A DNA stretch of 64,000 nucleotides. Source: Thermoanaerobaculia bacterium. Its GTDB lineage: Bacteria; Acidobacteriota; Thermoanaerobaculia; Multivoradales; UBA5704. How positions within the stretch are numbered: the stretch's first letter is position 1; each line of letters opens with the position of its first letter. Shown in pieces: positions 34,301-37,300 of the stretch. The notes under the pieces are model-generated. The model searched no databases and was not told the origin of the DNA. It saw only the letters and a program-made list of their open reading frames with translations. The DNA is taken from contig DATMZM010000208.1 of NCBI GenBank assembly GCA_035607445.1, forward strand, positions 1,286 to 65,285, given 5' to 3'. The position numbers were made by a program, and so were the translations under genes.

Positions 34301-37300
34301 TGGCGCGCGCGGAAGCCAACGGCGAGACGCGCTTGGTAGGGTATGCGGTCGGTGATGCGGTGCCGTCGCTCGCGGAGCTGCGGTCGGATCTATCCGCGCG
34401 GTTGCCGGAGTACATGGTGCCGTCGGCTCTGGTCGAGCTGCCGCAGCTCCCGCTGACGGCGCACGGCAAGGTGGACCGTCGAGCCCTGCCGGCTCCGGAA
34501 TGGACGCGGCCGGCGGTGGAGTCGGTCGCGCCCCGGACGGCCCTGGAGCGCTATTTGGCGGATCGCTGGCGCGAGGTGCTGGGGATCGAGCGCGTGGGGG
34601 CGGAGGACAATTTCTTCGAGCTCGGAGGCAATTCGATCAGCGGGGCGGTCTTGATCAACCGCCTGCAGCAAGAACTCGGCGAGATCGTGCAGGTGGTGGT
34701 GATCTTCGACCGTCCGCGGCTGTCGGATCTGGCGCGGTATCTCGAGGCGGAGCACCCGGTGGGCGTCGCGCGGCTGATGGGCGAGGTCGGCGCGGCGCCG
34801 GCGCCGGCGTCCTCTGCGCGAGTCGACGAATCCAAAGTGGCTCTTCTCCGGTCGCTCGTGCGCCCGCTCGCGCCGACGACCGAAGGGCGAGCGCCGAAGA
34901 ATCCGCCGGTCCTGTTCGTGCTGTCACCGCCGCGTTCGGGGACGACTCTGCTGCGCGTCATGCTGGGCGGCCATCCACGGCTGTTTGCGCCGCCGGAGCT
35001 GGAGCTGCTGTCGTACCGGACGATGGCGGAGCGCCGGGCGGCGTTCTCGGGACGTGACAGCTTTTGGCTCGAAGGGGTCTTGCGCGCGGTGATGGAGCTG
35101 CGCGGGTGCAATGTCGAGACGGCGCGGACCTTCGTCGCGTCATGCGAGGCGGCGGGGATGACGACGCAGGCTTTCTACGGCGTCCTGGCCTCCGAGTTGG
35201 GCGATCGGATGCTGGTCGACAAGACGCCGTCGTACGCTCTCGATCCGCTAGTCCTCTGTCGCGGGGAAGAGGAGTTCGAGGGGGCCCGGTACCTGCACCT
35301 GGTGCGGCATCCGGGCGGGATGGTGCGCTCGTTCGAAGAGGCGAAGCTGGACCAGGTGTTCTTCCGCCGGGAGCACCCGTTTGAGCGCAGAGAGCTGGCG
35401 GAGCTGATCTGGGACGTGAGCCAGGAAAACATCCTGGAGCTCTTGGCGGAGGTCCCTGGGGAGCGGCAGCACCGGGTGGTGTTCGAGGATCTGGTGCGGG
35501 ATCCGGAGGGGGTGCTGCGGGGCGTGTGCGCGTGGCTGGGTCTCGACTACGCGCCGTCGATGGCGGAGCCGTACGCAGCGGGCTCGTCGGGACGAATGAC
35601 GGACGGTCCGCATGCGGCGTCGCGGATGTTGGGAGACGTCAAGTTTCTGGGCCACGGAGGCGTCAAGGCCGGTGTGGCGGAACGCTGGCGGGAGGATCTT
35701 GCAGAGGGGTATCTGGGGGCGCCGACGTGGGACCTCGCGGAGAGGCTCGGCTACTCTCGGAAGGTCGAGAGCCCGGAGCGTTGGGAGGCGATACCTGCAG
35801 GGAAGAGCGGAGTGGCAGAAGAGTCTCCGCTGTCGTTCGCGCAGGAGCGTCTGTGGTTTCTGGACCAGCTGACGCCGGGCAGCGCGGTGTACAACGTGCC
35901 GCTGGCCCTGCGCCTGTACGGCCAGTTCGACGTCGCGGCGATGCGAAGTGCATTGACGGAGATCGTCGCTCGGCACGCGGTGCTGCGCACGACCTTCGGC
36001 GCGGTGGATGGCCGGGCAGTGCAGAGGATCGGTATTGTCGAAACATTCCCCTTGCACGGTGCAGATCTCGCGCGCCTTCCGGCCGCGGAGCGCGAAGGGG
36101 AAGCGCGACGGTTGGCGACGGCGGAAGCGCGTCGGCCCTTCGACCTGACGCGGGGTCCGGCCGCGCGAGGCCTCTTGATCCGATTGGCGCCGGACGACCA
36201 GGCGGCGGTGCTGACGCTGCACCACATCGTCTCGGACGGCTGGTCTCTGGGAATCCTGGTCCGGGAGCTGGTCGCCCTGTACGGTGCGGCTCTCGCGGGG
36301 AAACCAGCGGAGCTGGCGCCGCTCGCGGTTCAGTATGCGGACTATGCATCGTGGCAGCGGAGGTGGCTCGCCGGAGAGCGTCTGGAGCGGGAGCTCGGCT
36401 ACTGGACGGAGCGGCTGGCGGGTGCTCCGCGGCTCGCGCTGCCGACGGATCGGCCGCGTCCGCCCGTGCAGACGTTCCGCGGCGCGAGCCGCGGGGTGCG
36501 TCTCGCTCGGGACTTCGCGATGCACTTGGAGGAGGAGTGCCAGCGCGAGGGAGCGACGGCGTTCATGGGTCTCGCGGCGGGATTTCAGGCTCTGTTACAC
36601 CGGTGGAGCGGCCAGGACGATGTTTTGGTGGGAACGCCGATCGCGGGCCGCACGCGCGTCGAGGTCGAGAGCTTGATCGGCCTGTTCGTCAATACGCTGG
36701 TGTTGCGGACGGGGTTCGGCGACGGCCCGAGCTATCGCGAGCTTCTCGGACGCGTGCGGGCCGGGGCGGTGGCCGCCTACGCGCACCAGGAGGTGCCGTT
36801 CGAAAAAGTGGTCGAAGCGCTCGCCCCGTCGCGAGATCTCTCGCGTTCGCCGATCTTCGAGGTGATGTTCACGGTGCAGAACGCGCTGGCCGTGACGTTT
36901 GAGCTTCCGGGCTTGCATCTCGCTCCCTGGTCTCTCGGCGAGCCGTTGTCGAAGTTCGATCTGACGCTGACGCTCTCGCCGGAGACTCTGGCGGGGAGCT
37001 TCGAATACAACCGCGACCTGTTCGATCCGTCGACGATCGGCCGGTTGGGAATTCACTTCGAGCGCCTTCTCGCGGGCCTGCTCGCGCGGCCGGACGTGCC
37101 GATCGACGAGCTGGACCTGTGGAGCGTGGCGGAGCGCCATCAGGTCGAGGTCGAGTGGAACGCCCTTCCATGGAGCTACGCGGGCGAGATCTGCCTGCAC
37201 GAGATGTTCGAGCGGCAGGTGGACTGGGGCCCCGAGCGCACGGCGGTGGTGTCGGCCGTGGCGGACGAAGGCCCCTGGAGCTACGGGGATCTCGAAGCGT

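Follow-up and report, generated by a model that had tools for sequence, protein, structure and literature searches.

In-line sulfotransferase domains in a giant acidobacterial nonribosomal peptide assembly line probably act on carrier-bound threonine

Sulfotransferase (ST) domains integrated into assembly lines are, to our knowledge, known essentially from the terminating acyl carrier protein-ST-thioesterase (ACP-ST-TE) arrangement of CurM (curacin A polyketide synthase) and OLS (olefin synthase of Synechococcus) and from one cyanobacterial initiation module. The TE of the CurM type reportedly carries out a decarboxylative elimination after the ST has acted. Here, we describe ST domains located within the elongation modules belonging to a nonribosomal peptide synthetase (NRPS). 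They are encoded in a 64,000-nucleotide stretch of DNA from a Thermoanaerobaculia bacterium (assembly GCA_035607445.1, contig DATMZM010000208.1, positions 1,286 to 65,285 of the forward strand), which we refer to as the window. The whole window is filled from edge to edge by an NRPS assembly line on the plus strand. Three ST copies are present, in modules 6 and 11 of gene 1 (ST1 and ST2) and in module 16 of gene 2 (ST3). Our analysis centers on ST2, for which an earlier sequence-only reading of the window had proposed a dedicated in-line function. No description of an ST domain in NRPS elongation modules for threonine or serine was found in open-access papers and bioRxiv preprints; an account in a subscription journal is possible. 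The coordinates of all features are collected in Table 1.

Sequence and structure comparisons assign ST2 to the CurM/OLS family. The Pfam profile Sulfotransfer_3 (PF13469) matches ST2 with an E value of 3.6e-28 and 99.7 bits (gathering score 27) across profile positions 1-215 of 216, and ST1 and ST3 score about 95 bits each. Using phmmer, ST2 aligns over its full length with the CurM ST (4gbm, E 1.3e-61) and the OLS ST (4gox, E 8.7e-59) at about 38-43% identity. The AlphaFold model of ST2 (pLDDT 87.6) gives TM values of 0.84/0.93 to 4gbm and 0.82/0.93 to 4gox, with Foldseek E values of 1e-24 and 1e-23, respectively. The next-best structures are tyrosylprotein sulfotransferases (TPSTs) with TM values of only about 0.6. 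NCBIfam holds no model for the domain, its sole match being NoeE at 40 bits against a cutoff of 500. The peptide quoted in the sequence-only reading is encoded in the second frame of nucleotides 34800-35790, inside one uninterrupted open reading frame (ORF). This interval does hold ST2 but also takes in about 90 nt of the linker between the carrier (T) domain and the ST and about 30 nt of the linker between the ST and the condensation (C) domain. With a continuous frame, a position between core domains and three copies on threonine modules, ST2 qualifies as an in-line tailoring domain, a category that also includes MT, E, Ox and KR domains.

The active site is intact. In CurM, we take the functional positions to be Arg39 in the PRSG[ST]T loop, Glu60 as the base, Lys133, the flap residue Asp266 and the Arg/Ser pair contacting the 3'-phosphate. 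Aligning the three copies, the check suggested along with the original observation, places their conserved columns on exactly these presumed cofactor-binding and catalytic positions (R39, E60, K133, the 3'-phosphate Arg/Ser and D266). The P-loop Arg, Gly and Thr, the Glu base, the Lys, the 3'-phosphate Arg and Ser and the flap Asp are found in ST1, ST2 and ST3 and in 98-100 of 100 relatives, and the P-loop and downstream motifs were correctly described as kept. The position of CurM His62 is occupied by Glu in 90 of 100 NRPS-type STs, ST2 included. The dN/dS comparison suggested at the same time (Nei-Gojobori) yielded 0.16 for ST2-ST3 and about 0.31 for ST1 against ST2 or ST3 (overall 0.16-0.32), in the same range as the flanking adenylation (A) and C domains; the T-ST linker is far freer at about 0.3-1.3. 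Since the functional residues are kept and dN/dS is low, ST2 is intact and under purifying selection. ST2, like ST1 and ST3, is most likely a catalytically competent sulfotransferase domain that, as predicted from its residues, depends on 3'-phosphoadenosine 5'-phosphosulfate (PAPS).

In-line STs of this kind are not confined to the window. Genome and metagenome scans, annotated with local hidden Markov models (HMMs), yielded 88 loci whose in-line STs share 40-67% identity with ST2. These loci stem mainly from Acidobacteriota metagenome-assembled genomes (MAGs) and soil metagenomes, and additionally from Verrucomicrobiae, Kangiellaceae and two cultured myxobacteria. The closest relative of the T-ST query in the genome collections belongs to a Thermoanaerobaculia MAG (61% identical). 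The 88 loci encode 96 STs (93 distinct), with an ordinary C domain next in 65 and a TE next in 27. An exhaustive HMMER search at E <= 1e-30 returned 1,127 cluster representatives (50% identity), mostly from soil metagenomes and Acidobacteriota MAGs. As a less redundant sample we used the best 150 of the 1,127, nearly all of which are embedded in proteins of 1,000-7,000 aa. The architectures seen here were T-ST-C (70), T-ST-TE (46) and T-ST at the protein end (24). Overall, the ST directly follows a carrier domain in 142 of 152 representative STs (118 T-ST-C, T-ST-TE or T-ST-T and 24 T-ST-end). In the ST tree, which like our other trees was built by neighbor joining (NJ) and is approximate, ST-C and ST-TE versions are intermixed and the NRPS-type clade stands apart from CurM and OLS.

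The carrier domain preceding the ST is itself distinctive. A helix-2 pattern, GGxS[IL]x[GA]Axxx[NH], is present in 73 of 88 ST-partnered T domains and in only 3 of 179 others, and ST modules apparently use a dedicated T-domain subtype with this pattern as its hallmark. The GGNS motif reported for the carrier domain ahead of ST2 is present as described. We rejected GGNS as the defining feature, as the third residue may be N, D, T, S or H, and the Kangiellaceae and myxobacterial relatives carry GGHS. In each of the three window copies, about 50 aa separate the T domain from the ST. The reported recurrence of the ST with the same partners extends to three copies, each accompanied by an A domain with a Thr code, a T domain with GGNS and a C domain further downstream.

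Several relatives differ in where the ST is placed. Many of them (L004, L097, L130 and others) end their NRPS with A(Thr/Ser)-T-ST-TE and an ordinary TE. One locus (L081, 2585-3361 and 10001-11683) combines Ser-T-ST-C with a terminal Thr-T-ST-TE within a single protein. In the two cultured myxobacteria, Myxococcus sp. RHSTA-1-4 (L009, 5660-11596) and Pyxidicoccus fallax DSM 14698 (L078), the ST is part of a polyketide synthase (PKS) module, KS-AT-KR-ACP-ST (ketosynthase, acyltransferase, ketoreductase, ACP, ST), without a dehydratase (DH) or TE, and a separate protein opens with an ordinary C-A-T. Judging from this layout, the myxobacterial ST is mid-line, on a PKS module for a beta-hydroxyacyl group that feeds an NRPS.

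The choice of module and the residues of the ST active site both point to the module's own side chain as the substrate. All three window STs adjoin modules with a Thr code, and the code DFWSVGMVHK given for the A domain before ST2 is exact. Within the 88 loci, Thr/Ser codes were found in 48 of 74 coded ST modules versus 14 of 128 non-ST modules (Fisher odds ratio (OR) 15, p 2e-15). The corresponding counts for the 50%-identity representatives are 36 of 103 ST modules versus 7 of 87 others (OR 6, p 9e-6). Other codes of ST modules in the representatives include Tyr-type codes (about 11), a DIWE[IL]TADDK type (7) and many more. The Tyr-type codes (DAST[VI]AAVCK) occur in loci L092, L101, L111 and L133 and in representatives P0121, P0166, P0176, P0199 and others. 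Our substrate calls for non-canonical codes are assumptions from general knowledge; DIWE[IL]TADDK perhaps specifies basic residues. The sequences of ST modules without a Thr/Ser code suggest either a broader substrate range or hydroxylation in trans.

The ST varies together with these codes. At flap position 244, STs of Thr/Ser modules carry E, A or V and those of Tyr modules W or L (Jensen-Shannon divergence (JSD) 0.92). Thr/Ser modules go with D at position 57 and A at position 243, Tyr modules with Y, N or F and with P, respectively, and columns 243-246 plus 57 discriminate the two classes. STs of Thr and Ser modules can be told apart as well: S115 is found in 48 of 48 Thr cases versus T in 18 of 36 Ser cases, L118 in 46 of 48 versus W in 17 of 36, and W60 in 48 of 48 versus R in 18 of 36. 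ST1, ST2 and ST3 have the complete Thr signature. The discriminating flap positions flank the invariant G249-D250 (D250 corresponding to CurM D266), a region that we take to be the dynamic flap setting substrate selectivity in CurM and OLS. In a tree rebuilt without the discriminating columns, at least 11 separate changes among 15 sequences are required for the Tyr class, and the Thr/Ser STs that lie nearest to Tyr-class ones have D57, A243 and E244. Flap and A-domain code thus match by convergence and not merely by inheritance. Because the active-site flap covaries convergently with the A-domain code, we infer that the ST acts on the side chain of its own module. Together with about 190 related in-line STs and the dedicated T subtype, this covariation bears out the earlier proposal of a dedicated function over a fortuitous insertion.

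What follows the ST is ordinary. The C domain of module 12, which would accept the ST-modified donor, has its best PDB matches in Txo1, Txo2 and TycC (342 bits for Txo1, compared with 68 for AmbE and 72 for McyA), the same ranking as for a control C domain. A special class of post-ST C domains was considered and rejected: the C-domain tree groups post-ST C domains with other C domains of their own cluster and shows no separate clade, and no distinguishing position was found. In a comparison of 62 post-ST with 129 other C domains, no specificity-determining or Lys/Arg-enriched position emerged (maximum JSD 0.18). Similarly, a CurM-like ST-TE cassette in the NRPS relatives had to be discarded. 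Their TE is an ordinary NRPS TE, and the CurM TE is not among its matches. As a result, decarboxylative elimination cannot be read from the ST-TE relatives.

The window does contain C domains of a dehydrating type at other Thr modules. Dehydrating C domains, including C_modAA, are the known NRPS route to dehydroamino acids (2023 review, PMC10880069). The C domain of module 15, placed after Thr module 14, is of the C_modAA type, with matches to McyA (8jbr, E 1.5e-97, 330 bits) and AmbE (7r9x, E 7e-53, 183 bits). A second one follows Thr module 19 in gene 3 and is 62% identical to it. Both have the active-site motif NHAIFDG rather than HHxxxDG, and they lead us to predict dehydrobutyrine (Dhb) at the positions of modules 14 and 19. 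No C_modAA-like C domain follows an in-line ST in any of about 190 cases. Some Thr modules lack an ST: none is present in module 10, and modules 14 and 19 pair with the C_modAA-type C domains.

The six Thr modules of the window form two lineages. Modules 6, 10, 11 and 16 make up the first, are 69-89% identical over A-T and share the ST-type T domain. Modules 14 and 19 make up the second (73% identical), with GGDS in the T domain followed by the divergent C domain. ST1 and ST2 are 67.6% identical, close to the 65% first estimated, and ST2 and ST3 share 91.5% of their amino acids. In a tree of about 100 sequences the three are each other's closest relatives, and the recurrence of the ST is consequently ascribed to duplications within the cluster, an old one in the case of ST1 and a recent one in that of ST2/ST3. 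The latter belongs to a segmental duplication in which modules 11-13 (33016-42111) and modules 16-18 (50220-59369) are 80.8% identical in DNA sequence, and 82-89% over modules 11-12. The view of the sequence-only reading that the arrangement is not simply a recent copy applies to ST1; ST2 and ST3 lie in a duplicated module block and separated fairly recently.

Module 10 illustrates the same history. Its A-T portion is 72-74% identical to those of modules 11 and 16, and it retains both the helix-2 signature and the first part of the T-ST linker (ARYLEAEHxxGVAR). It probably arose by duplication of an ST module and then lost the ST, and its orphan T domain may be served in trans by ST2. Similar orphan ST-type T domains were seen in three relatives (L122, L123 and L101).

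Based on these observations, we propose that the A domain would load L-Thr onto the specialized T domain, whose helix 2 may be remodeled for docking of the ST. The ST would then use PAPS to place a sulfuryl group on the beta-hydroxyl of Thr held by the carrier as a threonyl or peptidyl-threonyl thioester, with the conserved Glu as the putative base, and the ordinary C domain would hand the chain containing O-sulfo-Thr to the next module. Should the sulfate ester stay in place, the product would be a long peptide of over 19 residues that bears Thr-O-sulfate at positions 6, 11 and 16, beside dehydrobutyrines formed separately by C_modAA domains following modules 14 and 19. We judge in-line O-sulfonation of Thr on the carrier to be well supported and quite probable. 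Its combination with retention of the sulfate we hold to be about evenly balanced. Retention is favored as the downstream C and TE domains are generic, with neither C_modAA nor a CurM-type TE among them. The presence and conservation of both Thr lineages in each repeat of the same line argues that ST and C_modAA yield different products. Tyr-coded ST modules point in the same direction, since elimination there is impossible unless the residue is beta-hydroxylated. Further, no lyase, sulfatase or PAPS genes lie beside the related cluster L081 at the one cluster end examined, where the neighbors are all housekeeping genes, and this lack of a lyase again speaks for retention. The oci cyanopeptolin NRPS provides a precedent for an integrated ST domain. 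Several points weigh against this interpretation. The CurM and OLS STs, the only characterized relatives, are reported by Gu et al. (2009) and by McCarthy et al. (2012) to install sulfate as a leaving group, not as a decoration. A bacterial nonribosomal peptide with O-sulfo-Thr or O-sulfo-Ser was not found in the literature covered. The enrichment statistics for Thr/Ser codes rest on related, non-independent sequences. About half of the representative ST modules are coded for residues other than Ser, Thr or Tyr, some of them Val-, Leu- or Gly-like, and a rule based on the module's own side-chain hydroxyl must therefore be incomplete or dependent on hydroxylation in trans. The window is solely NRPS and PAPS-supply genes are not among its genes. 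Finally, the evidence bearing on what becomes of the sulfate is indirect throughout.

The main competitor assigns the sulfate the part of a leaving group: carrier-bound Thr would be O-sulfonated and the sulfate then eliminated, either while still on the thioester or in the course of condensation or later, with dehydrobutyrine as the product. Such a sulfation-elimination route would parallel phosphorylation-elimination by LanM/LanL and glutamylation-elimination by LanB in lanthipeptides, and the formation of an alkene by the CurM ST-TE. The kinship with CurM and OLS, which are "activating" STs and the closest characterized enzymes, speaks for this, as do the strong tie of the ST to beta-hydroxy amino acids and its placement at the carrier-thioester stage, where the alpha-proton is most acidic. 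The extra Glu at the CurM H62 position, joined by Asp57 and Glu244 in the Thr/Ser class, could speculatively act as a second base. ST and C_modAA are mutually exclusive per module, the pattern that two interchangeable devices with one task should show; however, C_modAA already serves two other Thr modules, and a second device would be redundant unless the two gave different E/Z isomers. There is likewise no evident partner for abstraction of the alpha-proton among the generic downstream C and TE domains, and Tyr-coded ST modules could not eliminate unless Tyr were beta-hydroxylated. In addition, the beta-sulfated thioester in CurM is reportedly stable until the dedicated TE acts. Our search of open-access papers and bioRxiv preprints turned up no sulfate route to dehydroamino acids. 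Nor is such a route listed in the 2023 review on dehydroamino acids (PMC10880069), which marks it as unreported rather than excluded. On balance, we regard elimination as rather unlikely.

Substitution is another way in which the sulfate could leave. The free alpha-amine (Wenker-type), the preceding amide oxygen or another side chain would be the nucleophile, and the products would be an aziridine (3-methylaziridine-2-carboxyl), a methyloxazoline (allo-Thr after hydrolysis) or an ether or ester cross-link. Aziridine formation that depends on a sulfotransferase occurs in the case of ficellomycin and azinomycin. Both the family of the enzyme and its association with beta-hydroxy residues fit substitution as they fit elimination, the acidic residues E39, D57 and E244 of the Thr/Ser class could bind a free alpha-ammonium group, which would imply action at the aminoacyl stage, and the window domain map contains no heterocyclization (Cy) domain. 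Substitution nevertheless rests on chemical analogy, with a generic downstream C domain, no cyclizing partner and no specific pointer in the sequence, and we consider it very unlikely. It is also conceivable that the ST acts elsewhere, on another hydroxyl or amine of the chain, on neighboring carriers in trans such as the T domain of module 10, or that it is a structural relic. About half of the non-redundant ST modules have no obvious code for a side-chain hydroxyl, and module 10, directly upstream of the ST2 module, keeps an ST-type T domain without an ST. On the other hand, the catalytic and PAPS residues are all preserved, with purifying selection acting on them, the flap covaries convergently with the module's own A code, all window STs sit on Thr modules, and module 10 resembles a duplicate with a lost ST, making action elsewhere highly improbable. 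Taken broadly, a leaving-group role for the ST sulfate, and with it a cofactor-driven, C_modAA-independent NRPS route to dehydrobutyrine or dehydroalanine, or to aziridine or oxazoline units, is possible but doubtful. O-sulfonation of the module's own Thr with the sulfate kept is the interpretation that we prefer.

Table 1. Coordinates of the features in the 64,000-nucleotide window
Feature	Position	Strand	Remarks
Gene 1 (partial, left edge cuts gene)	1..42255	+	Listed ORF 235..42255, 14,006 aa; frame open from base 1, A3 motif ~70-100; Pfam, domain map
T + ST1, module 6	17329..18465 (GGNS 17395-17406; ST1 17683-18465)	+	A code DFWNIGMVHK
Orphan ST-type T, module 10	31303..31491	+	GGSS (31372-31383) ITGAVLVN; Thr code DFWSIGMVHK; without ST
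A domain, module 11	33016..34470 (core 33016-34074; C-terminal subdomain 34249-34470)	+	Code DFWSVGMVHK, Thr type
T (peptidyl carrier) domain, module 11	34564..34743	+	ST-partner subtype; GGNS 34624-34635, then ISGAVLIN
T-ST linker, module 11	34744..34887	+	Poor conservation between copies
ST2 sulfotransferase domain	34888..~35757	+	CurM/OLS family; Pfam, PDB, predicted structure, residue alignment
ST2 P-loop PRSGTT	34930-34947 (Arg 34933-34935)
ST2 Glu base	34996-34998
ST2 Lys	35221-35223
ST2 3'-phosphate-binding Arg; Ser	35305-35307; 35329-35331
ST2 flap	35614-35637		Ends at Asp 35635-35637
C domain, module 12	35827..37137	+	Takes ST-modified donor; ordinary C type, HHIVSDG
Gene 2	42252..59513	+	5,753 aa; five NRPS modules (14-18)
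C_modAA-type (dehydrating-type) C domain, module 15	45498..47024	+	After Thr module 14; motif NHAIFDG
T + ST3, gene 2 module 16	51768..52883 (GGNS 51828-51839; ST3 52098-52883)	+	A code DFWSVGMVHK
Gene 3 (partial, cut at right edge)	59510..64000	+	C-A(Thr, DFWNVGMVHK)-T(GGDS)-C_modAA-like C; at least 2 modules
Second C_modAA-type C domain, gene 3	62924..64000	+	After Thr module 19; 62% identical to module 15 C

The domain map of the window was built with in-protein seeds. Gene 1 comprises 13 modules, an A(cut)-T followed by 12 C-A-T modules, with the ST after the T domain in modules 6 and 11; at more than 14,084 aa it ranks among the largest bacterial ORFs. In gene 2, module 14 is a Thr module with GGDS in its T domain, module 15 has the C domain of the C_modAA type and module 16 is Thr-T-ST3. 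The layout of gene 3 repeats this opening. The junctions of genes 1 and 2 and of genes 2 and 3 are 4-nt overlaps, the latter reading ATGA. Neither a terminating TE nor a reductase (R) domain was found within the window, and no epimerization domain was found in its more than 19 modules. ORFs on the minus strand at 59156-63934 were considered as accessory genes and rejected as shadow ORFs, having no Pfam hits and overlapping the open plus-strand frame of gene 3. The predicted peptide repeat unit can be approximated as Thr/Dhb - Gly - Thr(ST) - Gln - (DVFHMSLVEK, Ser-like). In module 4, the C domain (7933-9276) shows an unusual active-site sequence, HHIACDDAS, with HHxxxDD in place of HHxxxDG. 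GC content declines from 0.755 at the left window end to some 0.66 at the right one. GC skew stays close to zero for most of the window and rises to 0.12-0.14 at 32-40 kb (32001-40000) and to 0.20 at 52-56 kb (52001-56000), covering the ST2 and ST3 blocks but not ST1. This rise may reflect a duplicated block of different origin or a different codon or amino-acid bias.

In conclusion, the CurM/OLS-type ST turns out to be a widespread, modular domain of NRPS elongation modules that is mostly uncharacterized. Thr/Ser O-sulfation is regarded as very rare in nature, and either fate of the sulfate would be new for nonribosomal peptides, as site-specific Thr/Ser O-sulfation or as sulfate-driven dehydration or cyclization. 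In case of the terminal ST-TE relatives, loss of the sulfate after hydrolysis would result in C-terminal enamides, and its retention in C-terminal O-sulfo-Thr/Ser or macrocycles. Were the sulfate to leave, the result would be a third strategy of the "activate then eliminate" kind beside the phosphate and glutamate of lanthipeptides and, to judge by over 1,000 sequence clusters, a widespread one among uncultured soil Acidobacteriota. For genome mining, the T-ST signature is recognizable, and current NRPS product predictions may miss it. The cultured myxobacteria represent a tractable experimental model, and A-T-ST is a portable cassette that could serve the engineering of sulfated peptides.

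Among known systems, the more distant ones share single features with ST2. SulN of the sulfazecin pathway is said to act on a carrier-bound NRPS intermediate; like ST2 it is PAPS-dependent, and unlike ST2 it is free-standing and makes an N-sulfonate. TPSTs likewise perform PAPS-dependent sulfonation of peptide-bound residues and are the next-best PDB matches (E about 1e-5), but they share only about 20% identity and a TM value of about 0.6 with ST2 and modify Tyr of proteins. The oci ST is presumably responsible for sulfating the N-terminal glyceric acid, not an internal Thr, and the sulfate is, as we understand it, kept in the product. It resembles ST2 in being NRPS-integrated, a likeness by description, and perhaps belongs to a different ST family. 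It is an integrated domain in the initiation region of the cyanopeptolin/oscillapeptin NRPS of Planktothrix, alongside a glyceric-acid-loading domain (PMC2533009). The lanthipeptide dehydratases LanM/LanL (kinase-lyase) and LanB (glutamyl-tRNA-dependent) would be comparable only under elimination, where the beta-hydroxyl of Ser/Thr is activated and the leaving group then lost (PMC10880069). They differ in working on ribosomal peptides through phosphate or glutamate with dedicated lyase domains and no ST homology; these two are the known lanthipeptide leaving groups, and sulfate is absent from the 2023 review (PMC10880069). C_modAA domains (McyA, AmbE, NocB C5 and others) act on carrier-bound Ser/Thr as ST2 is predicted to do and would be possible functional analogues if the sulfate is eliminated; their fold and chemistry are unrelated, relying on the C-domain His with no cofactor in contrast to the PAPS dependence of ST2. 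The closest counterparts are the CurM and OLS STs, which share with ST2 the fold, family, PAPS motifs, Glu base, Lys and flap Asp, the carrier domain directly upstream and, as predicted for ST2, a substrate hydroxyl beta to the carrier thioester. ST2 has Glu at the position of CurM His62 and belongs to the separate NRPS-type clade. Whereas CurM and OLS house their ST in the last PKS module, as ACP-ST-TE with a dedicated TE, ST2 resides in an NRPS elongation module, with a predicted alpha-amino or alpha-amido acid substrate (Thr) and an ordinary C domain next in line.

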